In this document: positions 25,016-62,363 of the stretch, in pieces | How the letters are laid out: every line of letters starts with the position of its first letter | How positions within the stretch are numbered: the first letter of the stretch is position 1 | Origin: Chiloscyllium plagiosum | Lineage: Eukaryota | Length of the DNA stretch: 64,000 nt | Direction of reading: 5' to 3' | NCBI RefSeq assembly: GCF_004010195.1 | Contig: NC_057718.1 | Location: 64,591,123-64,655,122, forward strand | Program-made: the position numbers and the translations under genes | The notes under the pieces: generated by a model | Told to the model about the DNA's origin: nothing | Databases searched by the model: none | Seen by the model: the letters and a program-made list of their open reading frames with translations, nothing else

Positions 25016-26111
25016 AAATGGCATTAGTATGAAGCAAAACATATTAATGGACCAGAATTTATTGTAAACAAAAATGGCAAAGTGAACTGGACTCTGCATC
25101 ACTCATGTACAAATTAAAGAGAAGCTTTATTTCAGTGCAAATGGAAAGTTTAGGTACAAAAGTCTAGAATCCATGTGACAGGTAGTAGACTGGAAGTTAT
25201 GTAGGATGGCAGGTGGATAAAATGAGTAAGTGGGTGAGCTGTAGGTGGTTTGAGGGGAGTCAAGTTTAGCTGTGAAGTCAAGTCAGGTGATGGAAGGTGG
25301 GAAAGGATCATCAGATTGGATTGAGTTGGGCTAGTCAGCTGGTGGGGGGAAGCTGATTAGTCAAGTTGGAAGTTAGTTGGTTGGTAGGAGGTGGGCAGGG
25401 CCAGATCGGGTGTATGGTAGAGTGATCAGGATAATGCAGTTGGTCATGGTAGTCAGGTTGGACTGAAGAGATAATCAGGATTTTGATGGATATTCAGGAG
25501 ATCTGGGGTTGTGGCCAGGTCATTGGGGCTATTGTCAGGTTGTGCCAAGTCAGAGTGGTAATCAGGTTTTTGGGGTCTACTTCATTTTGGACTGACAACA
25601 GAGCATGATGTGTTGAAGGGAAGGATTTACTGACAGGAAGTGTTCTCAGCTTCAGTCTTTGTTCCACCCAGTGACCTGGTGGTAGGAGATACCTGATGTA
25701 CAGATCAGCCAAGGGGAGAAGTGAAGTCTGTTGGGTCACCAGGCTACCCAAAATGCAGCTAGTGGTATAAGGAAAGGGCATATCTTGCTTTCTCCCAAAG
25801 ATACAACACTGCGATAGATTACTTCTTTGGATACTGTGCTCCTCATTTCTGGAAAAGCTGGGCTCAGAAGACCTCACAAAAAAGTTCAGAGCAGTGTCTG
25901 ACATGGAAAGGTTCAAGCAAAGCAATAACCCAATGATGATTGCTCACTTTCAAACTTTGATTAATTAATTCCAACCAGTGATAGGGTCATCACTTTTGCT
26001 GCTGTAAATGCTGTGACAAAATATCATGGAAAGAAGTCACTAATTTGTAGTTTTCTGACATTTTAGTGAGTGGTATTTGTGTTGAAGAATATGCACTTTT
26101 ATGTTTCACAG

Positions 26112-26291
26112 GCCAGTCTTCTGTTACTGATCAGTGCTTCAAACAGTGAATCACCTTTTGAGAACAAACCTTTCACTCACCTTGTCCTCGCTTGTGCATT
26201 AGTTGTACCTAATGTTCTGGCCTTGGCAAAGGCCTTATGGAAGGTATCATTTGGATCATCCGATGCTCCTTCACTTAATATTCTAGGAATG
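26112..26291 (+). CDS. chs1: Chitin synthase exon 3 (ASLLLLISA...LNILGM)
   Basis: Acceptor tttcacag, donor ATG|GTAAGA, 180 nt, phase 0-0, hydrophobic. Confidence 0.9.
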
Positions 26292-26369
26292 GTAAGATGT
26301 TTTTTAAAATTCAATTTAAGAGCTTTCAGGTTTTCTAGAAAAAGAAATTAAAGGAATAGAAGGGTATAT

Positions 26370-26820
26370 TTATAATTTCACTGGACTAGTAAACCAAAAC
26401 CCCAAGCTCATGCCTTGAGGACTTGGATTCAAATCATGGCAGATGGGGGAATTTGACTCTACAGAGGCCGGTATCCCATTACCAAGTCACCCTTTATTTA
26501 CATGTGGAGAGTCCTTAACGATCTAGCTTCCTCAGAGCCAGCTGACATACCTGCTCTTACAGCCTCAATGAGGGAACTCATATTCTATGAGGTCCACCTG
26601 GTTGACCTTGTTACAAAGAGTTGCTCAACTGATGATCAATAACTGTCGATTGTTGTAAAATGTATTTCAGAGAATGTAATCTGCCATCCTTGTCTGGACA
26701 GTATGTAACTGCAGACCCAAGGCAATGTAGTTAACTTTTATTTGCTTTCTGAGCAATTAGAGAAGAATGATAAAAGTTGGCTTAGCCAGCAACATCTATA
26801 TCTCATGTATAAATAAAAAA
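26370..26820 (+). mobile_element. Second tRNA-type SINE family, containing a possible solo-LTR fragment (~26458-26615)
   Basis: Similar to 27480-27800, 30590-30880, 40350-40690 and 49430-49640. Confidence 0.6.
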
Positions 26821-27479
26821 TACTTGGAGAGAAGCTAATGTTATGCTTGTGGCAGAATTTGGGGGTAGAACTGATGCAGCAATTGTTTTGCACAGTTTTG
26901 TTCATGCCTCTATGAAAACATCAGAAAAAAAATTAGACATTGTCTATATTCTGTCCATATTCAGCACATATCACTCAATGCAACTTTAAGTGCTTTAGTC
27001 ACTCGAAGAGCTTCTATATTTTCAAAAAATATATAATTTTAATGTCTCTTCAAGTTATGTAAATACTTTTGTGCCTTTCAATGATGAATTGACAAGGAAT
27101 TGACACAAACCAGGAGCTCTTAGGAAGTAATAAATATTGACAAACCTGATTATCTGAGAACAAATCTGCAAAATGTGGAAAGGGACAACTTTAACCTTAA
27201 TGCATTAAGTTCACTCATCTAAGTGTGCTCTTTTTGAAGGAGTAAATTAGTTGTCATTTTAGAATTTTTTTAGCTAACTTTACAAAGTTATTTCTCAAAA
27301 GACATTTAGGAAACAAGAAAACAGAAAAATAACATATTTTGAACATTTCATTTGTGATTTATTAAATATCACAAGTAGTTCTCATAACCTGGCCCCAATT
27401 TTTGTTCCCTGATTGAGCGCCGAGATGGGAGAGACCCTAGTTCCATGAACCTGACTTTTGAGTGTAGCTACCAGCCTTA

Positions 27480-27800
27480 TGGGGAGACAATGACCCAGTG
27501 CAATTACCACTTGACTGTCAATCCAGAGATCTAGGTTCTGAGGATCTGTGTTCAAATCATGCAGTGGTAGATGGTGGAAGTTGAATTAATTCATGAAACC
27601 ATTATTGGAGGAAAAACACATATGGTTCACTAATCTCCTTTAGAAAGGAAATTCCTGACTTATATGGTTGGCACATGTGTGACTCCAGACTGTCACCAAT
27701 GTGGTTGACTTCCAACTGCCCTCTGACCAATTGGAGATGGGCAATAAATACTGGCCAAGCCAACCATGCTGACATTATGTGAGAGAATAAAAAATAAGCT
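27480..27800 (+). mobile_element. Second SINE family copy
   Basis: gttcaaatc B-box-like motif and ggttcactaat...gtgactccagac...gggcaataaat. Confidence 0.7.
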
Positions 27801-28334
27801 AGAGTAGAAATTGGGGCTGACAATCCCAGAAGACCTGAAGAGGATGTTCAGTGAAAAAGCAAGAGAGGTGGAAAGCCTGATTTAAGGCCCTGTCACTGCG
27901 TATAAAACCTAAAAGAATAGTGCATAAAACATGTCTTCACCCCTCCTAACCACACACACACCCCACACACTCCCTCCATCTTTCTCTCTCTCACTCTCTC
28001 TCTTTCTCACTCTCTCTCTCACAACCACACACAAACGTTTCCCATTCCACATTCATTGTATATCAATTTTTACGGTCATATGCCAAACCATACTCATAAT
28101 CAACACCCTTTCCTTTTCACCTCTTGGGTTAAGTCACTTAGTATTCACCACAGAAGATCTCAGAACACATCCATAGGTGTGAGAAAAAAAAGGTCTATTT
28201 AGTGTGTGGCATTACAGATTTTAATATTGAGAAAAAAACCTCTTTAATTAAACACGTTTACTACATTTAAATTAGTTCACTTCAGTAAAGTCTTATAAAA
28301 CATTTCAAATTCATCATGCATTGAAATTCCTGCA

Positions 28335-28567
28335 TTCCCCATGGCCAAGTCAATTAATTTACACATCCCTGAACATTATAGACAATTTAGCATGGCTAAT
28401 TCACCCTAACCTGCATTTGGGATGGAAACTGGAGCACCTGGAGGAAACCCATGTGGACACAGGAAGAATGTGCAAACTCCACACAGACATTCATCTAAGG
28501 CTGGAATTGAACCCAGGCCTCTGTTGCTGTGAGGCAGCAGTGGTAACTATTGAGCCTCTGCCACCAA
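28335..28567 (-). mobile_element. HE1-type SINE
   Basis: gaggaaacccatg...tgtgcaaactccacacagac core. Confidence 0.85.
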
Positions 28568-29058
28568 CCCAGCACCTGATAATTTAAATGGCTAGCTGAC
28601 TCTATGAATTCATCATGCATAAATGTTCAGTTGAGTCTGTGAAATTGTGAAGTATCATGGTCAGAGCAGGATTTGAGATTTACTGGTATGTTTTGGAAAA
28701 AAAATTTAAGCCTCTGTATTTGGGTCTCACATTCTGCAAGAGAAAGTCAAACCAGCAGATGCATATATCATATGAAATTGTAGCTGGGTGCTATTTGACT
28801 GGCCACCGTTGTACACCTGATATTTAAATTCATTGACTTCAGTAATCTGAAAATTGTACCAAAGGAGCTACTTCAGCACTAACTGTAGACAACATTCAGA
28901 ACTTAACTATCACAACAAACTTAACTAATTGAGCATGAATGTAAATCCATGTTGGTCCAAAACCTTATTTCAATGATTAATCTTCTTTAAGTGTAATGCA
29001 ATATTATAATTTAACTTTGTGGATTTTCTTTCTGTCATCTCTCTAATTTTCTTTCCAG

Positions 29059-30095
29059 GTTTGTTTGATTGAAGCAGTTGTTGCTTTTGGCACTTCAATC
29101 TTGGTCCTGGTCTGCATGCCTCACTTTGACATTGTAACCAATTTGTATATTTTGAATGGTGTTTGCCTTCTTCCTGCTCTTCTGCAAGTAGTATTTCAGC
29201 TGAAACCACTCAAATCTTCTATGTTGCTTCCATTGGTAGGCTTTGGTTTTGTTTTCATGGGTCTCTTGCTTTTCATTTTAGCTCACAACCCACAGCAACA
29301 TTCAGAAGAGGTTAAACACATTAAACCGTACGTAGCCCTTGCAATAGTTGCCTTAATTTTCATATCTTTCAATTGGTGGGAAAATTTTACATCATACTGC
29401 AAATTTGGAATAATGGAAAATATAAGGGAAAACTTGCAATGTACCAGAAACATCACATATGTTTGTACTAGTACAGTGCGAATTCTAGTTATTGGTACTG
29501 TAGTGGCAGCTTGGATTCCAGTGAAGGAATATAAGTGGGAAGATGTAAAAACAGTCTCTCAATTCGATTTAAAAATTATTTTGTGCCTCTTTGGAATACA
29601 GGGGATTTCTTCTGCTCTTTGTCACTGGTTTGGGGTTCTGGTATGTAAAATGCATGCAGTCAGACGCAGCTTTGCTGTGCCTTCCGTATTAGCCACACCA
29701 ATTGTATTTTTTGCTTTTTTGATTGTGTTGTATGACAGCTTCAATAAATACGGCAAAGCAGATAGCTTTAACTTGACTGCCCTCTGCCACAATTTAAAAA
29801 CCTCCAACGATAGCGATTCTGTGCAAATCCTACTTTTAGAAATTCCTCGCAGCCTTTGCAGAGCAGAAGCGATATTAATTTCCAACAAAGTTGGCTTGGC
29901 ACTGCTTGGCTCCTTGGCTGTATGCTTTTGGCTAGGGCTGATTTTCTCCACATTCTACGTGTGGGGCCAGCACATTCAAAGGATTGAAAGGACATCCCAG
30001 CTGTTTGTCCGACGACTGTACGAGGCGGCCTTCATGGAACAGTCAATGCTGCTTAACACACGGGTCCAGAAAAAGAAAGAGAAGAAGGATAAAAG
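29059..30095 (+). CDS. chs1: Chitin synthase exon 4 (multi-TM N-terminal domain)
   Basis: 1037-nt open frame (ORF track 29065-30099) with many TM segments and the motifs FNWWENF, CKMHAVRRSFAVP, IERTSQLFVRRLYE. Acceptor ctttccag, donor AG|GTAAAA. Confidence 0.95.
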
Positions 30096-30589
30096 GTAAA
30101 ACCCTCATATATTTTCTTCCTGATGTTTTTATGGAAAGATATTTTTTCTCCAGAATTGTTTAGTACAACGAAGCTCATTTGGCTTCCCTGTTAACATTCT
30201 GTCGTTCTGCAGCATTTGTTTCTCTTTTTGAATGACAAAAATATGTGCCAAGTGGAGAAACAGACTTATTTCATTCACAGATTGTTGTTATCCTTTACCC
30301 TGAAGGAAATTTATTTGAGCAATTCACAGCTAAGTCTGCAGTCTGCAGATAATGCTTAAAGAGCACCGCAATGAATGACCAATTTCTCTGATTTTTGAAA
30401 TGACATTCTGTTTCTCAGCAGTACAACAAAATCAACATGGCCTGATTTACTTGGGACAGTAAGGTTGCCAACCATGTAGGACTGAGCATGCAGTCCCCAG
30501 GACACTGCCTTGCATGGCCTTGGAAATAAAAAGACATATGGACATGAAAGAAGATTTATTTTGACATTTTCTTTGAATTGTTGGAAAAT

Positions 30590-30880
30590 TGTTGGAAAAA
30601 CCCATCTGGTTGAGTAATGTCCTCAGGGAAGGAATCTGCTATCCTTACCTGACAAAGGGTCAGTTAGACTCGAAACGTCAGCTCTTTTCTCTCCTTACAG
30701 ATGCTGCCAGACCTGCTGAGATTTTCCAGCATTTTCTCTTTTGCTATTCTTACCTGCTTTGGTCTACATGTGACTGTAGATCCATAGCAATGTACTTGAC
30801 TCTTATCTGCCCTATGGGCAATTAGAGGTGGGTAATAAATACTGTTCTGGCCAGTGTTGCCCACATCCTATGAATTTAAA
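30590..30880 (+). mobile_element. Second SINE family copy with an inserted Penelope-like terminal repeat (~30649-30745)
   Basis: The insert is flanked by ctatccttacctg / ctattcttacctg. Confidence 0.7.
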
Positions 30881-31094
30881 AATGTCATATTCACTGACAA
30901 TTGCATAATGTTCAATTCTATCTGCCACTTTTCAGATACTAAAGCTGTCTCTGCATAAAACAAGATCTGGACAACATTTAGGTTTCAGCTGATATGTAAT
31001 GTTTACAAATAATATTTGTGCCTTGCAAGTGCCAGAGAATGACAACCCCAACAAGAGAGAATCTATTTGCCTGTGATGTTCAGATTTTTTTTTA

Positions 31095-31392
31095 GATTAG
31101 ATTCCTACTATGTGAAAACAGGCCCTTTGGCCCAACAAGTCCACAATGACCCTCTGAAGAGTAACTCACCCAGACCCATTTCCCTCTGACTAATGCACTA
31201 ACACTACATGCGATTTAGAATGGCCAATTAACCCGACCTGCACATCTTTGGACTGTTGGAGGAAACCAGAGCACCCAGAGCAGACATGGAGAAAAAGTGC
31301 AAACTCCACACAGTCGCCCAAGGCTGGAATCGAACCTGGGTCCCTGGTGCTGTGAGGCAGCAGCGCTAACCACTGAGCCTCCGTGCCACCCG
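31095..31392 (-). mobile_element. HE1-type SINE
   Basis: Full head (gggtggcacggaggctcagtggttagc on -) and (ttaga)n tail. Confidence 0.9.
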
Positions 31393-31404
31393 TATGTTCA
31401 GATG

Positions 31405-32038
31405 CTTCTGCATCACCATCACCGAATTCCCTACTAGCGATGTCCTGGGTTATTATTGACTAGAAACTGAACTGAATCAGCCATTTAATATACTGGTGAC
31501 AAGAACAGAGGAATTCTGAGCTGAATAACTCTCCTGTCTCTCCAATGCATGTCCACTATTTGTATGCATAAGTTAGGAATGTGATAGAATACTCTCTGCT
31601 TCCCTGGATGAGTGCAGTGCGAACAACACTCAACAAATTCAACACCATCCAGGGTAAAGCAGCCCATTCGGCTGACACCCCATTCACCACCTTCAACATC
31701 ACTCCCTTCACCACTGATGCATTGTGGCAGAAACTGTGAAGTATCTGTGCTGCAACAACTCACCAAGACTGCTTCAACAGCACCTTCCAAATCCATGACC
31801 TCTACCATCTAGAAGAACAAGGTCAGTGGATACGTAGAAAGTCTACCACCTGCAAAATCTCTTCCAAGAAGCATACCATCCGGACTTTAAACTTTATTGC
31901 TTCCTCTTCATTGTAACTGGATTAAAATCCTGAAACTCCCTTCCTTCCTAAACAGCACTGTAGATGACCCTACACCACAAGGACTGCAGCAGTTAAGTAG
32001 GCAGCTCACTTTTACCTTCTTCAGGGCAGTTAGGGATA
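31405..32038 (+). mobile_element. Degenerate LINE 3' end (CR1/L2 group) whose tail resembles the second SINE family
   Basis: The tail gggcagttagggata...ggcaataaat resumes at 34404 after the Penelope insertion. Confidence 0.6.
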
Positions 32039-32103
32039 AGGGGTCTAGATTGGAGTGGTGCTGGAAAAGCACAGCAGTTCAGGCAGCATCTGAGGAGCAG
32101 TAA

Positions 32104-32139
32104 AATCGACGTTTCGGGCAAAAGCCCTTCATCAGGAAT
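32104..32139 (-). ncRNA. Putative minimal hammerhead ribozyme in the Penelope terminal repeat
   Basis: Reverse strand attc-CTGATGA-A-GGGC(TTTT)GCCC-GAAA-C-GTC-gatt. Confidence 0.7.
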
Positions 32140-32180
32140 ACAGGCAGAGTGCCTGAAGGGTGCAGAGATAAATGAGAGGA

Positions 32181-33037
32181 NNNNNNNNNNNNNNNNNNNN
32201 NNNNNNNNNNNNNNNNNNNNNNNNNNNNNNNNNNNNNNNNNNNNNNNNNNNNNNNNNNNNNNNNNNNNNNNNNNNNNNNNNNNNNNNNNNNNNNNNNNNN
32301 NNNNNNNNNNNNNNNNNNNNNNNNNNNNNNNNNNNNNNNNNNNNNNNNNNNNNNNNNNNNNNNNNNNNNNNNNNNNNNNNNNNNNNNNNNNNNNNNNNNN
32401 NNNNNNNNNNNNNNNNNNNNNNNNNNNNNNNNNNNNNNNNNNNNNNNNNNNNNNNNNNNNNNNNNNNNNNNNNNNNNNNNNNNNNNNNNNNNNNNNNNNN
32501 NNNNNNNNNNNNNNNNNNNNNNNNNNNNNNNNNNNNNNNNNNNNNNNNNNNNNNNNNNNNNNNNNNNNNNNNNNNNNNNNNNNNNNNNNNNNNNNNNNNN
32601 NNNNNNNNNNNNNNNNNNNNNNNNNNNNNNNNNNNNNNNNNNNNNNNNNNNNNNNNNNNNNNNNNNNNNNNNNNNNNNNNNNNNNNNNNNNNNNNNNNNN
32701 NNNNNNNNNNNNNNNNNNNNNNNNNNNNNNNNNNNNNNNNNNNNNNNNNNNNNNNNNNNNNNNNNNNNNNNNNNNNNNNNNNNNNNNNNNNNNNNNNNNN
32801 NNNNNNNNNNNNNNNNNNNNNNNNNNNNNNNNNNNNNNNNNNNNNNNNNNNNNNNNNNNNNNNNNNNNNNNNNNNNNNNNNNNNNNNNNNNNNNNNNNNN
32901 NNNNNNNNNNNNNNNNNNNNNNNNNNNNNNNNNNNNNNNNNNNNNNNNNNNNNNNNNNNNNNNNNNNNNNNNNNNNNNNNNNNNNNNNNNNNNNNNNNNN
33001 NNNNNNNNNNNNNNNNNNNNNNNNNNNNNNNNNNNNN
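32181..33037. other. Assembly gap
   Basis: Run of N. Confidence 1.
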
Positions 33038-34073
33038 TAATGGAGATGGAGAGGTCCAGGAAGGGGAGGGAAGTGTCAGAGATAGTCCAGGTAAATTTAA
33101 GGTCAGGGTGGAATGTGTTGGTGAAGTTGATGAATTGCTCAATCTCCTCTCAGGAGCATGGGGTGGCGCCAATGCTGTCATCAGTGTAGCGGAAGAAGAG
33201 GTGGGGAGTGGTGCCGGTGTAATTACGGAAGATGGACTTTTCTATGTGGCCAACAAAGAGACAGGCATAGCTGGGGCCCATATGGGTGCCCATGGCTACC
33301 CCTTTGGTCTGGAGGAAGTGGGAGGATTCGAAGGAGAAATTGTTAAGGGTGAGGACCAGTTTGGCCAAACGAATGAGAGTGTCGGTGGAAGGGTACTGTT
33401 GGGGACATCGGGAGAGGAATAAATGGAGGGCTTGGAGGCCCTGGTCATGGCGGATGGAGGTGTAGAGGGACTGGATATCCATGGTGAAGATAAGGCGTTG
33501 GGGGCCGGGGAAAGGCAAATCTTGGAGGAGGTGGAGGGCGTGGGTGGTGTCTCGAACGTATATGGGGAGTTCCTGGACGAGGGGGGATAGGACAGTGTTG
33601 AAGTAAGTAGAAATGAATTCAGTGGGGCAGGAGCATGCTGAGACGATGGGTCGGCCAGTGTGGTCAGGCTTGTGGATCTTGGGAAGGAGGTAGAACCAGG
33701 CAGTGCGGGGCTCCCGGACTATGAGGTTTGAAGCTGAGGGTGGGAGATCTCCTGAGGTGATGAGGTTCTGTATGGTCTGGGAGATGATGGTTTGGTGATG
33801 AGGGGTGGGGCCATGGTCGAGGGGACAGTAGGAAGACGTGTCCTCGAGTTGGCGTTTGGCTTCCGTGCTGTAGAGGTCAGTGCGCCAGATTACCACTGCG
33901 CCCCTTTATCTGCTGGCTTGATGGTGAGGTTGGGATTGGAGCAGAGGGATTGGAGGGCTGCGCGTTGTGAGGGTGAGGGGTTGGAGTGGGGGAGGGGGGT
34001 AGACAGGTTGAGGCGGTTAATGTCCCGGCGTCAGTTGGAAATGAAGAGGTCGAGGGCAGGTAATAGGCCAGCA

Positions 34074-34180
34074 NNNNNNNNNNNNNNNNNNNNNNNNNNN
34101 NNNNNNNNNNNNNNNNNNNNNNNNNNNNNNNNNNNNNNNNNNNNNNNNNNNNNNNNNNNNNNNNNNNNNNNNNNNNNNNN
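34074..34180. other. Assembly gap
   Basis: Run of N. Confidence 1.
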
Positions 34181-34644
34181 TGGGAGCTGTGGGGAGGCAT
34201 GTCAGCAGAATGCAGGTGAGTGGCATTGGTGGGGTGGAAGTGGTGGCAAACACGGCAGTGGGGGGGTGGAAGTCACTGAGCGTGTGACATCAGCGATGAT
34301 GTGAGGGGTGAAAGGGATGTCACGTATGGTGCATGAGGAATTGTGAGGGGCGGAAGTGGCTGTGGAAGCGGCCATGATGGGGGCAGAAGTGACATCATCA
34401 ATTAGTTAGGGATAGGCAATAAATGGTGGCTAAGCCATTTATCATCTCATGAACATAATAAAAGTGAATTCATCTAATCAAGTAATGACAGCTGTTCACA
34501 ATCCACTTGATTTGGGAAGGCAATATTATATGAGGACCAACTAAGCAGCTAAAGTGAGGAAGGGGGCTGGCTGGTTTTAAAGAGGAGGTCATAAAATGTA
34601 AGCCCCCTGGCCACATTTAACAGACTTGATGAACGTGATCGGTG

Positions 34645-34843
34645 AAAATGAGTATTGCAGATGCTGGAGGTCAGAGTCAAGATTAGAGTGGTGCTGGAAA
34701 AGCACAGCAGGTCAGGCAGCATCTGAGGAGCAGGAAAATCCACATTTCTGGCAAAAGCCCTCCCTTTTGCCCAAAATATTGATTTTCCTGCTCCTCGGAT
34801 GCTGTCTGACCTGCTGTGCTTTTTCAGCACCACTCTAATATTG
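34645..34843. repeat. Imperfect palindrome of two inverted Penelope-like terminal repeats
   Basis: Arms at about 34678-34757 and 34760-34843. Confidence 0.85.
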
Positions 34844-35275
34844 ATGAATGTGATAGTCAAAGGTATGGCAGGTATTTAAAAATAAAATGCTCCTAACCTG
34901 GAGACTTCTTTGGCTTCCTGCTGTATCTTAATGCTTCTGATATGGAGAGCATCTTGACATAAGTATGTGTCAACACTCCACCCAGCTGACAGGAAAACTC
35001 AAAATACATGGGGAAATTTTAAGAGGGTTATAGGGGAATTGCATTATTAGGTCTCCTCTACATTGTCCACTTGAAATTTGCACCTTCAGATTAGTCATTG
35101 CTAAAATATTGATTTTTGAAAATTTTCCAAGTAAATTATTAAATTTAAATTGTTTTCCTTGTAGTTTAATTGACTCACGTGTAATTAAACTGTCATAGTC
35201 ACTGTAACTTCCTAGCATTGTACATTATTTAAATGATTAGGTATTAACAACAAATGGAAATATTTTCTACAATAG

Positions 35276-35365
35276 AAAATCGGACCATGTCATGATATAT
35301 CTGTGTGCAACAATGTGGCATGAAACAGTGGATGAAATGGCAAAGATCCTTACTTCAATATTCAG
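35276..35365 (+). CDS. chs1: Chitin synthase exon 5 (KSDHVMIYLCATMWHETVDEMAKILTSIF)
   Basis: CATMWHE signature. Acceptor aatag, donor AG|GTAAAT, phase 2-2. Confidence 0.95.
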
Positions 35366-36029
35366 GTAAATCCAGAAGCACCAATGTATGTTACCGCTGA
35401 CATCAAAGCCAGTATGGGAGTTTCTCCTCAAGTTGTTTAACGACATAAATCACTATTCAAACAATGCACATTCTGAATAGCAAAGCAATAGTAACATTTC
35501 ATTGTCTTTGCTGAGGTTGTCTATGAAGGCTTTCAATTTGTACAATGTCATGTTGCACTTCATCAAAGCACTGTGCGAAGCTTTCCAAAACTTTCTGCTT
35601 GGCGGAGCAGGCTCAACAACACCAAATGGCCTGCTCCTGTTCCTATTTCTTATGGCTTCCCTCCACTCTGCTGTTGCAGTGGCAATTCTGTTAATGTGTT
35701 GATACTTGAACTTTGATTCTTCTGCTCTGTATTCAAATGTTGTGGAATATATTGGCCCGGATTGCTGCTCTGCTCAAACCTTTCTGTCTGATTCATGCTG
35801 GTCTCCATTTCTAGCCTGGTCTTTTGAATCCAGCTGAGAGAAATAGGAGTTTATGGAAGTACTCGCCATAATCTTCCAATTCTCAGATACGATGAGAGTG
35901 GGGTGCTGCCAGAAGACTGAAAAATAACAAATATCCAGACAAGGCAGTAATCCGAACAATTACTGTCTAATCAGTTTATATGTGATAGTGAAAAATCTTT
36001 ACAAACAATCTGGGACAAAATTAACAATT

Positions 36030-37300
36030 ATTTAGAACAAATTCAGATTAATTATTAAAGTTAGCAGAGGTCTGTTAAACACATATCATGTTTAAGTAAC
36101 TCGCTGCTTGAGTTTCCTCATAAGGTAATAGTCTTGTTAATTAGGGTAATGTGGTTGATGCAACATTTATGGACTTTCAAAATGCATTTGATAAAGAACT
36201 ATTTAATATATTTCACTGCAAGGTTGAATCCTGTGGAATTAAAGGGACAGTGAAAGCGCAGGTAAAAGGTTGACTGACTGTCAGGAAACAGAGTTGTAGT
36301 CAATGGTTGGTTTTCAGACTAGAGAAAGGTAGACAGTGAATTTTCCCAGGGTTGGGACTTACCTGATTTTTATAAATGATCTCACCTTGCCTGTGCTGGA
36401 CATGATTTCAATATTTGCAGCCAAAATGTGAAAGCATTGTGCACTGTCTGAAAGGTGATGACAAATTTCAAAAATTTATAGTAATGCTAGTGGAATAGGC
36501 AGACAGAGTGGGCAGATGAAATTTACAGTGTGAAATGGTACATTTTCATAGGAAGAACAAGTTGAGGCAATGTAATATAAAACACACTGTTCAAAAAAGG
36601 TGCTGGAACAGAGAGACCCAGGATATATGTGCACATTTCGCAAGAGTCAGACCAGAGACTGAGTAACTTAATAAGAAGTAAAACAAAATTTTGATCTTTG
36701 CAAATGGAGGCATGGTAAACAAAATCAAGCAAGTTCTTATGAACTATTTTGGCTTCATTTATACACTATACAAGTCTGTACATCACACTTTCGGAAGGAT
36801 ATGAAGGCTTTAGAGTGTATACAGAAACTTTTTATGGGAATGGTTCCAGGGATGAGGAACTTCAATAACAAGGATTGATTAGAGAAGTTAAATTTGCTGT
36901 CCTCAGACAGGAGAAGTCTGAAAGAAGGGTAGATAGGGAGAAACTGTTCCCATTAGCAGAAGGATCAATAAAGAGCATTGATGTAAGTAATTTGTAAAAC
37001 ATATAACTCAATTCTCACCATTACTACATCCTTTTTAAAATCAGCAGAAAAAAACCATAAGAACCTGAGAAATATCATTTTATGTTGCCAGGGTTTAGAT
37101 ACTACTCAAGGGTTGTGTTGAAGCAGTTTCAATCAGGGATTACAAAAGAGAATTGTATAAGCACCTGAAAATACAAAAGAAAATGCAAAACTACAGGGCA
37201 ATGGTGGGGGATTTGGACCAACAGAGTTGCTGTTCCCTCCAACTGTAGGAACATGACAAGCTGAATGGTCTCCTTCTCTGCTGTAAATATTCTACGATTG
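36030..37300 (+). mobile_element. Old degenerate CR1 RT fragment
   Basis: MDFQNAFDK remnant and CR1 3' end similarity. Confidence 0.65.
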
Positions 37301-37530
37301 GCAATCATAAAAGGGATGTATTCTAAAGCTGGGGCTAAGCTTCATGTATCACCTAAGGATGTGATCTCTCATTTCTAAATGATACACCATTTGTTTACCC
37401 AGCAAATTATTGAAAAATCAAAAAAAAAACAAATTGTTTAGAATCATGGGGCAGGATGCACTGAAGTCTAAACTAGTAATTTTATAATTGGAAATCTAGC
37501 TCTTAAAATCGCTTTGATATTTTCTCTGAA

Positions 37531-38300
37531 TTAGGAGAAAGTGAGGACCCAGATGTTGGAAATCAGAGTTGAGACTGTGGTGCTGGAAAAGCACAGCAGG
37601 CCAAGGTGCAGGAGGATCGACATTTTGGCCATAAGTCCTTCATCAGGAATGAGGCTGGGGGGCTGAGAGATAAATGGGAGGGAAGTGGGGTTGGGAGAAG
37701 ATAGGTGAGAATGCAATAGTTAGATGAAGATAGGGGAGAAGGTGATAGGTTGGAGAGGAGGGTGGAATGGATAGATGGGAAAGTTGATGGAGGTCAAGAG
37801 GGCAGTGTGCTGAGTTGGAGGTTTGGGACTGGGATAATGTAGAGGGAGAGGAAGTGAGGAAACTGTGAAATCCACATTGATCCCATGTGGTTGCAGGATC
37901 CCTAGGTGGAATATGAGGCGTCCTTCCAACAAGTGTTGGGTAGTCAGAGTTTGGCGATGGAGGAGGCCCAGGACCTGCATGTCCTTGTCGTAGTGGAGGA
38001 GGAGTTGAAGTGTTCAGCCACGAGGTGGAGGGATTGGTTGGTGCAAGTGTCCCAGAGATGTTCTCTGAAATGATCTTCAAATTGGCATCCTGTCTTCCCA
38101 GTGTAGAGGAGACCACATCAGGTGCAATGGATACAGTAGATGACATTAGTGGAGGTCCAGGTAAATTTCTGTCGGATGTGGAAGGATCCTTTGGGGCCTT
38201 GGATAGAGGGGAGGGGAGAGTATGGGGGTGGGGAAGGCATGGATCTGATGAGGGGGTCGCAGAGAGAATGGTCTCTCTGGAACCCTGATAAGGGTGTCTT
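37531..38300 (-). mobile_element. Penelope-like element 3' part (GIY-YIG domain and terminal repeat)
   Basis: FHIRQKFTWTSTNVIYCIHC. Terminal repeat with a CTGATGA core. Confidence 0.88.
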
Positions 38301-38439
38301 TACTATTTTCCCAGACCTCCCCCTCATTTAGGAAGATTGTTTAGTCCTCAGAAAAAGCCTTACCTTTAACCCTTTACACTCTGAATTAATGAATTTGAAA
38401 TGCATTGCGACCTTGAATATTTCTTTGGCTGCCTCCACC

Positions 38440-39150
38440 TCCAGGTCCACTTTTTCAATGAAGACTCCTAACTACCCACCGAGGACCCCTTCTCTTGCCT
38501 CCAACACACTCCATCCACCTGGACACTGTATACTGACTTCCACCAATGTCATCTACTGTATCCGTTGTACACGGTGTAGTCTTCTCTACACCGGGGAAAC
38601 AGGACGCCAACTTGCGGATTGTTTCAGAGAACATCTCTGGGACACCTACACCAACGAACCCCATTTCCCTGTGGCTGAACACTTCAATTCCCCCTGCCGT
38701 TCCACCAAGGACATGTAGGCCCTCGGCCTCCTCTATCATCAAACCCTTACCACTCGACGCCTGGAGGAAGAACGCCTCATATTCTGCCTTGGGACCCTGC
38801 AACCATACGGAAGTAACGTGGATTTCACCAGTTTCCTCAATTTCCCTCCCCCAACATTATCCCAGTCAAAGCCTCAACTAAGCACTGCCCTCTTGACCTG
38901 TCCAAGACCTTTACCATCTATCGACTCCACCCTCCTCTCTGACCTATCACCTTCTCCCCCACCTTCATCTACCTATCACATTCTCAGCTACCTTCCCCCA
39001 AACCCCACCCACCTTCCATTTATCTCTCAGTGCCCCGGCCCACAAGCCTCGTTCCTGATGAAGTGCTTATGCCCGAAATGTCGATTCCCCTGCTCCTCGG
39101 ATGCTGCCTGACCTGCTTTGCTTTTCCATCACCACACTCTCAACTATTTT
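38440..39150 (+). mobile_element. Penelope-like element 3' part (GIY-YIG domain and terminal repeat), inverted relative to 37531-38300
   Basis: NVIYCIRCTRCSLLYTGETGRQLADCFREHL. CTGATGA...GAAA.GTC at 39055-39082. Confidence 0.9.
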
Positions 39151-51790: not shown

Positions 51791-53707
51791 CTGGACCTGG
51801 AAATTTATCCACTTCAAGCCTGCTAAAACTACTAATACGTACTTCCTCTTAATGCTATTTTGTTCAAGTAAATCACAACCACTTACTCACTATGGATAAA
51901 ACTCAGCTCTTAATAATCTTTGTAATGCTCACAAAGCCATCAAAAGAAAGCAATCATCCATTCAACTTCATTTTTAAAAAGTGCTGTTCTTTGGAGGTCA
52001 TAAAACTATTGTCTTTCAAACTCCATACAAAAAAAGCTAAAATAATTGTGAAGCTATCAAAATAAAGAAATAATTGAGAAAAAATGCTTCAAAAAGACAT
52101 AATCATATTAAATATTTATAAAACTGTCAATCAAACTGTTCATAGGCCCCTTGAAATCTTTTCAGTTAACCCCTGCTGAGCTAAATCAAAGAATTGGATT
52201 TGGAACTCAGCGAACCATTCATAATATTTTTCCATTGCACCATTCCATATTCAAAACCCTCAGAGATAACTAAAGCATAGCTTTCACAATTATCTGAACA
52301 GGCATCTAACATAGAATTTCAATCGGTGAAGCCAGAAAACTATTCAATTTTTCAAAGACATAACAGATGTCTGGACTTCAAATCAAAGTATAAATGAAAG
52401 CATGGATTCAATGTGACATATGAATATCTGTTTCTGAACACTGTTGAATGCATAAGTATCTTTAGAAAATCTGCTATAACCTATAAATACTTCCACAATG
52501 CTGGCCATTCAATAGTCATAATCGTTTAAGAACAGAGCTTTATGATCAATCAGTGGATTAAAAACATATTTATTGTGCAGACTCATAGCAGTTGAAGTTA
52601 GCAACACTTTGCAACACTTTAAATACATAGATGCCCCAAAGATCATGAAGCAAGGATTCTTTAGTCCACTATCATCCGATCTTTACAAACATGAAGGAAA
52701 ATTAATGTCTTGGAAAACAAAGTATTTACATGGAAATAAACCTACATTTCATATCTGATTGAGAAATCCTTTGCCTGTCTCTCCCTTTTTCCATGAAGCC
52801 TCTCGATGGAGGAAAGGATGTAAGTGTCAGAAAGAGGCCTTATGACATTTGAAATTAGCAACACATTTTAAATGTATTTGTCAAAAGGTTCCTGACTCAA
52901 TATTAGGCTTCTCCCAAGGTTCAAGGGCTGACTGAACTGATGTGATTCACATAGGCGTCAAGATACCATCCACCCCACTGAAACTCTCAAACTTAGGAAA
53001 ATGCAACATTGAGACAGACACTTAAAAAACATTGACCACAATGTTATCTCGAGTGCATGTCCGCAGGCAGATGGTGATTTCCTGGTGATAATTTACTGAC
53101 AGAGACAAATTAAGAGACCACCACTAGAATGCCATCCAACTGAGAATGGCAACCACTATCACAGAGTTGCTAGTCCAATCGGAGAGTTGGCAGTCTGTCC
53201 ATTAAGACAGTAGAATGGAGAAGAGGATGCCTCTATCTTTTGCTTGAAGGCAAGGTAGAATTTCTTTTAATGTGCCAGTACTAGACGTGCAGAGACCAGT
53301 GTTTGGAGAGGTAACCTCTCTAACTGGCATCATTGGATCAATGGTGGGTGGCCATTGGGGAATCCTCAAGGGACTATACAGCAGACATTGACAAAGCCCT
53401 CTTGGAAACCTATTGGGGTTCACAGTTTCACTTTAGCAAGTGCCTCCAGTTGGTGATTGGCTGTTATCACTGTCGTTCCTTCCAAAGAACATACAGAAAG
53501 ATGTAAACCTCCTCTACTTCAAGTTTGAAGTCTCCTGCCCTGAGCTGGTAGATTTTAGCCCAGCATTACCATTGTTTGTCAATGGTTGATGAAAGAAGCG
53601 GATTTAATCAACCAAATGTCCTTTTCTTACTCCATACTTTCTCATGTAAAATCATCTGTTTTTGAATCTCTCAACAAATCTATGCATAACAGTAAAATGT
53701 ACATGTC

Positions 53708-53710
<3 letters not shown>

Positions 53711-53766
<56 letters not shown>
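53711..53766. repeat. Compound microsatellite (CT)15(AT)13
   Basis: Seen directly. Ends 19 nt before exon 10. Confidence 0.97.
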
Positions 53767-53785
53767 CTTCACCCACCCCTAACAG

Positions 53786-53986
53786 GTCCTATGGTTTGGT
53801 ACCAGAAGTTTGAATACGCTGTTGGCCACTGGCTACAGAAGACAGCTGAACATGTGCTAGGCTGTGTCCTGTGTAGTCCAGGATGTTTCAGTTTGTACAG
53901 GGCAGCAGCCCTAATGGATGATAATGTTGTGAAAAAATATACTACCAAAGCGACAGCAGGGCAGCATTTTGTCCAGTATGATCAAG
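53786..53986 (+). CDS. chs1: Chitin synthase exon 10 (PMVWYQKFEYAVGHWLQKTAEH...QYDQ)
   Basis: QKFEY and GCVLCSPGCFSLYR motifs. Acceptor ctaacag, donor G|GTAAAC, phase 1-1. Confidence 0.97.
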
Positions 53987-54084
53987 GTAAACCTAATGCA
54001 TGTTACTGATGCCTGCTTTTACATGAGTTAGAATTTCTACATACTAGATTCACTTGAAATCTTTGTTTATCAAACATCTGACAA

Positions 54085-54535: not shown

Positions 54536-54743
54536 ATTGAATGTAAAATTAAGTTCTGTTACAATCACCCTTAATTTATACAATTAGTTTACCCATACAT
54601 TAATCAATGAGTGCATGAATTATCCTGAAGACAGACCTAATTCTTGCACGAGAGATTTTAACATTTTTGGATGTTTAAATGATTGATATTAGCATAATGG
54701 GCTGGAAGCCACCTTTAACAGGTACACTTATCACCTCCACCAG

Positions 54744-55028
54744 GAGAAGACCGTTGGCTGTGTACATTATTACTTCAGCAGGGGTGGCGTGTAGAATACA
54801 ACGCAGCTTCAGATGCCTATACAAATGCACCACAGGAGTTCAAAGAGTTCTACAATCAACGACGCCGTTGGGTACCTTCAACTTTGGCAAATACAATTGA
54901 TCTTTTAAACAGTGGAGCACAAACATCCAAGAGAAACCACTCAATTTCAAAACTCTACATTCTGTATCAGATTGTTGGAACTGCAGCATCAATTCTAGGT
55001 CCTGCCACTGTGGTTTTAATGATTGCAG
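54744..55028 (+). CDS. chs1: Chitin synthase exon 11 (catalytic GEDRW and QRRRW)
   Basis: EDR at 54746-54754 and QRRRW at 54857-54871. Acceptor ccaccag, donor G|GTGACT. Confidence 0.97.
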
Positions 55029-57147
55029 GTGACTATGCGTTTCTACTTTATTGTGAATTTTTTTTTGCTTTAACTTGGGATAACATACTGTAACCATAGG
55101 TCTTATTTCATTTCTGCAACATTATCATAAAAATGTGTCAGTGCCACAGATGCATTAGTGATTGTATTTTGCTGCATACTGATGAAATGGCACAGACTTT
55201 TTTTTTGCCTCCATGACTAAAGTACAGATTGCTGCATCAACATGAAGGTTATGCTAACACACAGTCATCCCCTAGTGTACCCTGTCAGGATCTACATAAA
55301 CAATTATAAGCTATTTTAGATACCAGTCAGGCCATTGTATTCAGCTATTGAAGTTGCATCATGACAGTTTCTCATACTGTTTTACAGTCTCATAGTAAGA
55401 TGTATGCCCCGAAATTGTCCACCATTCAGAATCATGCAAACCATTAGATTTATTTAAGAAAATTATTTGGCAAGCCTTGTTACAGTCTCCTCCATACAAT
55501 AGAGAGTGAATTCAACAATTCTGCTTGCAGCTAGAGATATTATTTGTTGGGAATGCAGATTATTGACAAACCTGCAGCACTGATTCTGCAGCCCTTTTCT
55601 TAACAAGAGATGTTCTCAACTAGTAATGTAGGATAGCTGAATATTTTCAGTATAACAGAAATTGAATATTGCTATGAAAAAAAAAGTGCTTGTTAAAGCT
55701 TTTCATATTACACTCATCAGAGCAGATTGAGAAGAATGCCAAATTTCCAAAGGAGCAACAATTTATATTGCATGAGAAAAAGCTGATTGTTTGGCAAATG
55801 AACTCTGGTTGGTTGAGGTGCTGCCATAGAAAATGTTGTCCCGCAAGTGTTTGTTAGTTGAAACAAGCTGCAATAATCACACAAGCTTTTTTTTAGTTTA
55901 CAGCGGACAGGACCTGCATGTGAACAGTAGTAGCTTCCATTGAATCCCATTGTGAAACTCATTGATAATCTTGAATTGATTGTTAATGTAATTCTTAGCA
56001 CACTCAGGATTGTTAAGTAATGCTGCCCTTTTGCAGAATCACATCTAATGTTGGTTTTAGTTTTACAAGCATGACCTGAGTGGGGACTGTCCATACTCTA
56101 CCTATTGCAAACAATCAACAAGATGTATTATTTGATATAACCTACCAGTCATCGGGACATATGACCTACATACATTGGCACCATATTGTCACTTATTACA
56201 AAAATTACCGAATATACTATGCGATGTGTTGATTCACTTCAGACTGAAACACAAAATAGTGTTATTTGCATCTTTTCTCATCAAAACCTTTCATTTTCAT
56301 CAAACAAACAAAATACGTTTACAAAAACCAAATACTAAGTCAATAATTCCACTCTCATGCCATGTTATGTATCGTGATATCGTTCTATCAGCACATTATG
56401 ATGTGACCTTCTGAAGGCAACAGCTGATACGCATTGCTAAAGCAATGTGAACCATTTATAACAGAAAGAAGTTTCACCGTACAGCAGCTAGAACAGAAAA
56501 TAATCCCAAATGCATTTGCAGAGAAGAGGAGAAAATGAGCATCAAGCAGCAGAAAAGTCAAGGATGGTCATCAAATATATGAGACAGAAATATTCTTAGA
56601 ATTCCTCCCACTTTGCTATCTCAACTTCTTTGGAGGTGCAGTGAAATAGTTGTTTATTTTGAAATTATGGTGATTGAGCAGGAGCAATTTTGAACATATG
56701 CTTGATTGTGGTCTATCAAGTAGGTCTTGAAGAGGTTATTGTTGTATAGTTCCTGATAGTCCTAATGAATTATGCTTAGCAAGTGAAAGCAAAGTGTACC
56801 TATTGCTATCATGCAATAAATTACCTTGTTATGTAAGGCAAGTGCCTCTTTGTTTACTTTCATCAGTGGTCTGTCCTCTACCACTGGTAATTAGACAGTC
56901 TCTGGACTCAGCATGGAAAAAGGAAAACTGGTGACAGGGAACCACTCAAACCAGAATATGACAGTCATGTGTTACGATGAAAAAATATAAATGCCTCCAA
57001 ATATGTTTTCTTAAATATTGATTAATTTTAATTATATATAAGGTTATTGACAGAAAACTTATAGGATAATTTTGTTTTATCCAATCTTAATAATACAAAG
57101 TTCTTCTTAATTCAAGATGGTGACTTTTTGTATACAACAATTTACAG

Positions 57148-61130: not shown

Positions 61131-61560
61131 TCTAGCAGCTGCTACACAAACAGTTTCAATTCACCTTTGACACGTTTTGTTAAAAGCTGAGCTATAAGTG
61201 GACAAATGGTGCATCGCCCTAAAACAGCATTAGAACGTTAAACATGCAAAGAGGGAACCCACATTAATTGTTGGACTCTGATTGACAAATTCAAGTATAA
61301 AATGAGTGAAACAAGGCCACAGCAGTGATTCCTGAACTAAACAAGGGCCTTCATGTGAAAGTAAAGTCATTCCTATTCACACTTACATGATACTTGGAGG
61401 TGGATTTGTCATAGGCTCTTTCAAATTTTTAATCAACTTGTTATGGTCCCACTCTGTGGTCATTATATCCTAAGGTGGGACCTGACCCGGCCCTCCAGGG
61501 AGCATGCTACAAGACTCAGAGCTTTTTGCATTGATGCTAACATTATGTTATCTTTTTTAG

Positions 61561-61912
61561 GTGAAATGTTGAAAGAAAACACCTTTATTACTCCAACAGG
61601 CTTATTCTTCATCTCGATGATGATCCTTTACTTCTCAACAGCAATGCTGCATCCCCAAGAATTCCCTCTTGTATTTTACGGATTGTTGTACATCATCTGT
61701 ATCCCCAGTGGATACTTGTTGCTGCCAATTTACTCCATGGTAAACATGAATAATGTTTCATGGGGCACACGTGAAACAGTTACTCCAAAAATACAGGACA
61801 AAAATAAAACTAAGCAGGTTCTGCGATATGAAAAGAAATGCAAATGCATCTGTTGGGATATTGAATTTTTAGTCAAAGAGGATAAAAAGGAATTAATTCA
61901 CCATGCAGACAG
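61561..61912 (+). CDS. chs1: Chitin synthase exon 13 (LHPQEF...NNVSWGTRE...HAD)
   Basis: LHPQE motif and WGTRE at 61761-61775. Acceptor ttttttag, donor AG|GTAAGT. No stop codon, so the gene continues. Confidence 0.96.
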
Positions 61913-62363
61913 GTAAGTTTCTTTTAAAGTAACTTACAATAAGCTGTCGTTGTGCAAATTAACAGTACCGTCTCCTTGTGCCTAGTGTTGGTTTGTATTT
62001 CTTTGTTTTGAACTATAGGTTAGTTATTAATTATTGATTGATTTATTTTCTTTGGATTAAATTGGTCTCTCAAATTGTCTCTTACAAGCTCAAAAGGATG
62101 GATGATATTAAGTCCCTGCTCTTCAAGAGAACTCAGGCTTTATAACAAGGCTCTGTATCAAATTCTCACTCACCTACGCTTCTCTGACTGGTTGGACTTT
62201 CAGGTTTAGCTGGGCTTGATTTGTTAGGTGCTTTCCAGATACTGAAAATTATGACATGAAGCTGGAATCCTAATTTCTGCTGCGAGGGGCAATGGAATTT
62301 CTTTTGTTGGGTTTTTAGAGAGTGAGGCTGATATTCTGATTCTTCGGTGGGATTATATTCTTC

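Follow-up and report, generated by a model that had tools for sequence, protein, structure and literature searches.

A minimal hammerhead motif in the 3′ repeat of an intronic Penelope-like element of Chiloscyllium plagiosum, likely inert at its locus

When the conserved core of a hammerhead ribozyme is found inside a vertebrate intron, is it a ribozyme at work on the host transcript, a passenger of a mobile element, or a chance resemblance? The question is raised by positions 32104..32139, on the - strand, of a 64,000-nt stretch of the genome of the shark Chiloscyllium plagiosum (contig NC_057718.1, positions 64,591,123 to 64,655,122), which we refer to as the window. We argue that the motif is very probably the minimal hammerhead of a Neptune-type Penelope-like retrotransposon (PLE), carried into the intron with the 3′ repeat of the element, and likely inert where it now sits.

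Anatomy of the motif

The motif reads as a minimal type-I hammerhead (min-HHR; 32104..32139, - strand), on the evidence of its sequence, a descriptor scan, the pairing of helix II, and covariation among families. The 5′ arm of helix I, A2.4-U-U-C2.1 (32139-32136), is followed by the CUGAUGA box, from C3 to A9 (32135-32129), an extra A after A9 (32128), the 4-bp helix II GGGC/UUUU/GCCC (32127-32116), the GAAA box with G12, A13, A14 and A15.1 (32115-32112), the bases C15.2, G16.2, U16.1 and C17 (32111-32108), and the 3′ arm of helix I, G1.1 A U U (32107-32104). The ACGU palindrome occupies 32112-32109, and the predicted cut site lies 3′ of C17 (32108). The original prediction, made from the letters of this stretch, had named the two boxes, the extra A, the 4-bp helix II, ACGU and the GUC triplet on this strand, and all of them are there with exact coordinates. 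A folding model gives helix II a pairing probability of 0.99+ in the window motif.

For helix I the prediction was about 2 bp. Two contiguous pairs are indeed present, but the register goes further, to three or four pairs, with a U.U opposition and then A2.4-U1.4, and these positions are filled in sister families. A distal helix I with downstream GGAUG, drawn by eye, was rejected; it leaves 15.2-16.2 unpaired.

The predicted minimal, dimer-type anatomy agrees with the min-HHR traits given in parts of Cervera & De la Pena (2014, PMC4209133), where such motifs are described in the pseudo-LTRs of metazoan PLEs as dimerising via their palindrome and cleaving weakly. Shared traits are a type-I core with CUGANGA and GAAA boxes and an NUH triplet, a G10.1-C11.1 pair closing helix II, an unpaired base between 9 and 10.1, a palindromic 15.1-16.1 (15.2-16.2 in the comparison with the published motifs) with no loop 3, a short helix I (2-5 bp) that covaries across families, and location in a pseudo-LTR. 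The differences are that helix II has 4 bp here versus 7-8 bp in the Schistosoma families (passages of PMC4209133), and that the window family has a weak helix I. The very short palindromic stem III and the association with PLEs are also shared with the small dimer-cleaving hammerhead variants of Lunse et al., as partly related in PMC6765202.

A strict descriptor (core, 4-bp helix II, CGTH) matches once in the window, where 100 first-order Markov simulations average 0.0 matches, and a 30-mer with <=3 mismatches has 2 window matches, compared with 0.00 expected from 100 shuffles. A scan of 26000-38000 with the Rfam covariance models at E <= 10 reports 7 matches, none to a hammerhead family, and this silence is expected because the motif has no helix III.

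The element and its host gene

The motif sits in the visible part of a 3′ pseudo-LTR (32044..32180, - strand) with 80-96% identity to the same end of paralogs. The body of this 5′-truncated PLE (33038..34403, - strand; ~90-92% DNA identity to paralogs) includes a reverse transcriptase (RT) reading frame (33150-33905, - strand; taken from the ORF list, Pfam RVT_1 E 3.1e-7), which comparison with paralogs shows to be broken by a frameshift on its 5′ side and an in-frame stop. The element is bounded by an 11-bp target-site duplication, with a left copy at 32028..32038 and an identical right copy at 34404..34414 that marks the 5′ truncation point. A match of 11 bp between 30-nt pairs appeared in 3 of 5,000 random draws, and homology to three paralogs ends at 34405. 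The copy is ~2.4 kb long and the upstream repeat is absent; the stretch from RT to repeat, endonuclease region included, is unread (N).

Paralogs supply the endonuclease. Of the 29 closest RT paralogs retrieved, 20 have the motif (with <=2 core changes) downstream of the RT and in its orientation. A GIY-YIG motif occurs in 7, including the three with an intact CX4CxxC linker (L084, L089, L104). In paralog L203, a single 725-aa frame runs through RT, CX4CxxC linker and GIY-YIG, and is then followed by the motif; the Pfam scores of both its domains are slightly below the curated cut-off. The window giving the RT and the paralogs the endonuclease, the element has the layout of an EN+ PLE, RT and then C-terminal GIY-YIG, which bears out the predicted Penelope-like terminal repeat. 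A CX2-5CxxC linker between RT and EN, found in L084, L089, L104 and L203, is given as a mark of Neptune or Nematis in sections of PMC8557442, and the vertebrate PLE clades reported in parts of bioRxiv 10.64898/2026.07.22.740005 are Neptune and Poseidon only. We therefore infer Neptune rather than Nematis, by linker and published vertebrate distribution and not by a tree. For fishes, passages of PMC4209133 report min-HHRs in Neptune, Poseidon and Xena elements, where most are truncated solo copies.

By eye, the flanks 31960-32027 and 34415-34450 join as an older repeat, in which the element would be nested, and similar sequence recurs near 30812-30880. Introns are known inside PLE repeats. A pyrimidine tract ending in CAG, splice-acceptor-like by eye, lies ~20 nt upstream of the motif (32150-32180, - strand) and also in paralogs.

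As predicted, the position is intronic. Donor and acceptor context delimit, by eye, a GT...AG intron at 30096..35275 on the + strand, the exon 3′ of it reads KSDHVMIYLCATMWHE, and three downstream + strand exons match Pfam Chitin_synth_2 (examples of chitin synthase exons, all on the + strand, are 29047-30095, 35276-35364, 53650-54009, 54719-55093 and 61365-61916). Among vertebrates, fishes and amphibians are known to have chitin synthases. Since the gene is on the + strand and the motif on the - strand, the hammerhead is antisense to the host pre-mRNA. Could this copy nonetheless be a domesticated intronic ribozyme that cuts or regulates the chitin synthase pre-mRNA? The intact core inside an intron invites the idea, but we give it very little credence: besides being on the opposite strand, the motif has 18,175 exact copies in the genome, so that intactness of the core at this locus needs no selection, and the two host-strand motifs in the window are both damaged (30649, with C3/A8; 39055, with changes in helix II and at 15.2). 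The locus itself is unimportant, a dead, antisense repeat copy of a PLE.

Genomic copies and covariation among sister families

Those 18,175 copies are occurrences of the exact 28-mer of the window motif in the 3.56 Gb genome, where its reversed control occurs 0 times. A relaxed core pattern (both boxes plus ACGUY, pairing rules not imposed) has 161,525 matches versus 224 for its control, which amounts to ~45 motifs with an intact core in each Mb. A sample of 967,656 unselected bases contains 161 copies of the downstream block, inverted pairs being counted twice. The 161,525 relaxed matches far exceed the ~4,000 hammerheads of coelacanth and ~9,000 of Xenopus in the portions of PMC4209133 on this point, with the proviso that the descriptors differ; for axolotl, parts of PMC7229834 and bioRxiv 10.64898/2026.07.22.740005 give 126,247 motifs in a 28 Gb genome, by other descriptors again. 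Copy density is the sole outstanding feature of the window motif, which is an ordinary example of the kind described in 2014. A search of openly accessible papers found none on this shark hammerhead/Penelope family. Shark terms were absent from the two supplement files of PMC4209133 that were searched, and shark examples of min-HHRs may already be published.

High copy number and PLE-related type-I hammerheads are also features of animal non-LTR retrozymes, which parts of the same two sources (PMC7229834; bioRxiv 10.64898/2026.07.22.740005) report in one chondrichthyan genome. Those are non-coding tandem repeats, whereas the window copy is a single motif attached to an RT-coding element, and we rejected this class for it.

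Copy number by itself shows only amplification, so is the hammerhead likeness a chance match within a high-copy repeat, as the lack of an Rfam match might also suggest? What decides is whether the fold persists in families that differ in stems and flanks. We compared 139 unique perfect-core matches from the loci analysed, which are pattern-selected and hence a non-random sample; copies of one family are not independent, and what covaries is a few changes at the level of families, each in the right register. The window motif belongs to family A. At 2.1-1.1, families A-D have C-G, family F has U-A in 30/30 copies, and family G has A-U in 5/5; within family A this position is paired in 42/57, and the C.A mismatch in 11 others is expected from CpG decay. 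Pair 2.2-1.2 is U-A or C-G across families. Farther out, family A has U.U at 2.3-1.3 in 52/57 copies and a pair at 2.4-1.4 in 52/57, and all four helix I positions are paired in 6/6 copies of family C. The extra base after A9 is A in 56/57 copies of family A and U in 5/5 of family G. Position H17 is C or U in every parsed match, as the pattern partly imposes.

The core itself also covaries. In family F, U3-A8 replaces C3-G8 (2,420 matches versus 553 for the control, ~1,900 above control), the same swap as that reported for Schistosoma Cercyon in a passage of PMC4209133. The mismatch C3/A8 has 3,640 matches, ~2% of the 161,525 intact, spread over all families, and is found only as scattered decay.

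Across families whose stems and flanks differ, then, the boxes are retained while both partners change in helix I and in the 3-8 pair, and the pseudo-LTR position agrees with the one described in parts of PMC4209133. This covariation already contradicts a chance match, which we regard as barely credible. The original prediction had staked itself on conservation of the core across genomic copies, and this is what the exact 28-mers, the relaxed matches and the family covariation all report. Because sister families keep the fold via compensatory changes (helix I, U3-A8), the hammerhead fold is likely selected in active elements.

Two of these families merit description. Family F has a 4-bp AGCU/AGCU helix I (loci L205-L234), and its window copy at 30649-30679 (+) has C3/A8. 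Family G is unrelated in sequence and has a long helix II, the extra U, the same core and palindrome, and a helix I of A-U/C-G (loci L064 1500-1533; L199; L204 8718). The genome is a rich source of natural Penelope min-HHR variants, including family C with its perfect helix I and family F with U3-A8, and these two are good substrates for asking what such ribozymes do in Penelope transposition.

Folding, copy ends and the role of cleavage

How would the selected fold act? In an active tandem element, the ACGU palindromes of two motifs would pair with each other to form a common helix III of 4 bp. By analogy with systems described in parts of PMC4209133 and PMC11167929, the paired motifs would exchange helix I strands and cleave 3′ of GUC, probably at a slow rate and aided by the element's own protein. 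The uncut RNA is probably the insertion template, which would explain why copies keep the whole motif.

The closest biochemical comparison is the Poseidon element PAc of Anolis (Frangieh et al. 2024, PMC11167929). According to the parts of that paper that deal with it, the PAc hammerhead cleaves only with the element protein, ribozyme mutants still insert in vitro, insertion mainly uses unprocessed RNA, and read ends are absent from the cut site. The shark element resembles PAc in having its motif at the pseudo-LTR, in the apparent use of uncut RNA for insertion, in the absence of ends at the cut site, and in an optional 3′ tail. The difference is that PAc is a biochemically tested Poseidon element, while the window element has a Neptune/Nematis linker and is known from sequence.

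At the locus itself, the predicted alternative to the hammerhead is an inactive hairpin in which U4-G8 pairs with C15.2-G1.1. A nearest-neighbour model, whose energies ignore tertiary contacts in the core, favours this hairpin: in the window family, two hairpins come to 2 x -11.4 kcal/mol and the modelled double hammerhead to -9.3 kcal/mol. The gap is small in family C (-14.2 inactive versus -13.1 double hammerhead) and moderate in family F (-19.8 versus -15.1). The stability of the 97-nt end is unremarkable (z -1.39). The window holds no tandem copy of the motif and only one further - strand motif, which lies at a distance of 17 kb and has no ACGU palindrome. The caution of the original prediction about activity was right, and the more so at this locus, where the motif is antisense to the host, has no 5′ repeat and no partner, and is predicted to fold inactively; the window copy is likely inert, cutting nothing there. 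Of four sequencing runs aligned to 31960-32180, one has no reads there. A raw RNA run places 1,829 on the two strands together, of which almost all belong to other copies (99% continue into unlike sequence); depth in the unique flank is almost zero, and no pile-up of molecule ends is listed for this poly-A single-cell library, a type that cannot reveal a cut.

Where do copies begin? Of 66 young copies aligned, 4 adjoined N and were dropped, leaving 62 with a readable 5′ end. Only one starts <=4 nt from the cleavage site, in line with the insertion of unprocessed RNA described in passages of PMC11167929. Within 5 nt of A2.4 there are 17 starts, 16 of them in family B, and 18 copies extend >60 nt upstream; in the window family the A2.4 pile-up is weak (1/15). 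Genome-wide, family B patterns that begin at position 7 and are lengthened in 4-nt steps until they start 4 nt upstream of A2.4 fall from 49,513 to 41,780, 25,042 and 13,502 matches, agreeing with the 5′ pile-up; the last pattern is trimmed by one base at the 3′ end, and part of the final drop may reflect differences between subfamilies. Loose read ends at 32139 hinted at a fixed 5′ end, but the motif also occurs in families whose upstream sequence is different, and copy starts were therefore compared within families.

Microhomology at the junction with an ATT target could account for the pile-up, as could transcription starting at A2.4, whose context is initiator-like. Among 38 copies examined, 8 are solo; the duplication is detectable in 4, and in 3 of these it overlaps the bases at the A2.4 end. 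The Anolis enzyme prefers ATT (a passage of PMC11167929), and ATT microhomology would explain the pile-up at least as well as a transcription start.

Because the cut site is not where copies begin, we must ask whether the fold is kept for a non-catalytic role, such as RNA dimerisation, protein binding or promoter overlap, with self-cleavage negligible even in active elements. The greater predicted stability of the inactive fold, the low in vitro activity of min-HHRs (parts of PMC4209133), and the insertion of Anolis ribozyme mutants (parts of PMC11167929) all speak for such a role. Yet conservation or covariation extends to the catalytic boxes, the H17 rule (which the pattern imposes in part) and the 3-8 core pair, and the Anolis motif does cleave when its protein is present (PMC11167929, same parts). 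We hold the non-catalytic role to be a serious but unlikely alternative, and favor a hammerhead that would cleave in active elements.

An inverted partner is found on the 5′ side of 21 of the 81 copies that reach C3, an arrangement known for PLEs (in part of PMC8557442). A more speculative reading, improbable in our estimate, would join several of these observations. The ribozyme load of this genome would be among the densest known in vertebrates (~45 intact-core motifs/Mb), and its copies would record a mechanism, as their 5′ ends cluster where helix I starts rather than at the cut site and one copy in four has a head-to-head partner. An RNA dimer paired by the palindrome may then present a pair of uncut templates to a single protein dimer, giving the inverted insertions typical of Penelope, with cleavage late or minor.

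Other PLE remnants are present in the window. Two further 3′ fragments with GIY-YIG remnants lie in opposite orientation at 37643-38299 (-) and 38332-39111 (+), the + copy holding the damaged hammerhead at 39055. At 34650-34845, head-to-head truncated pseudo-LTR ends make a long hairpin, with weak, chance matches to Rfam microRNAs.
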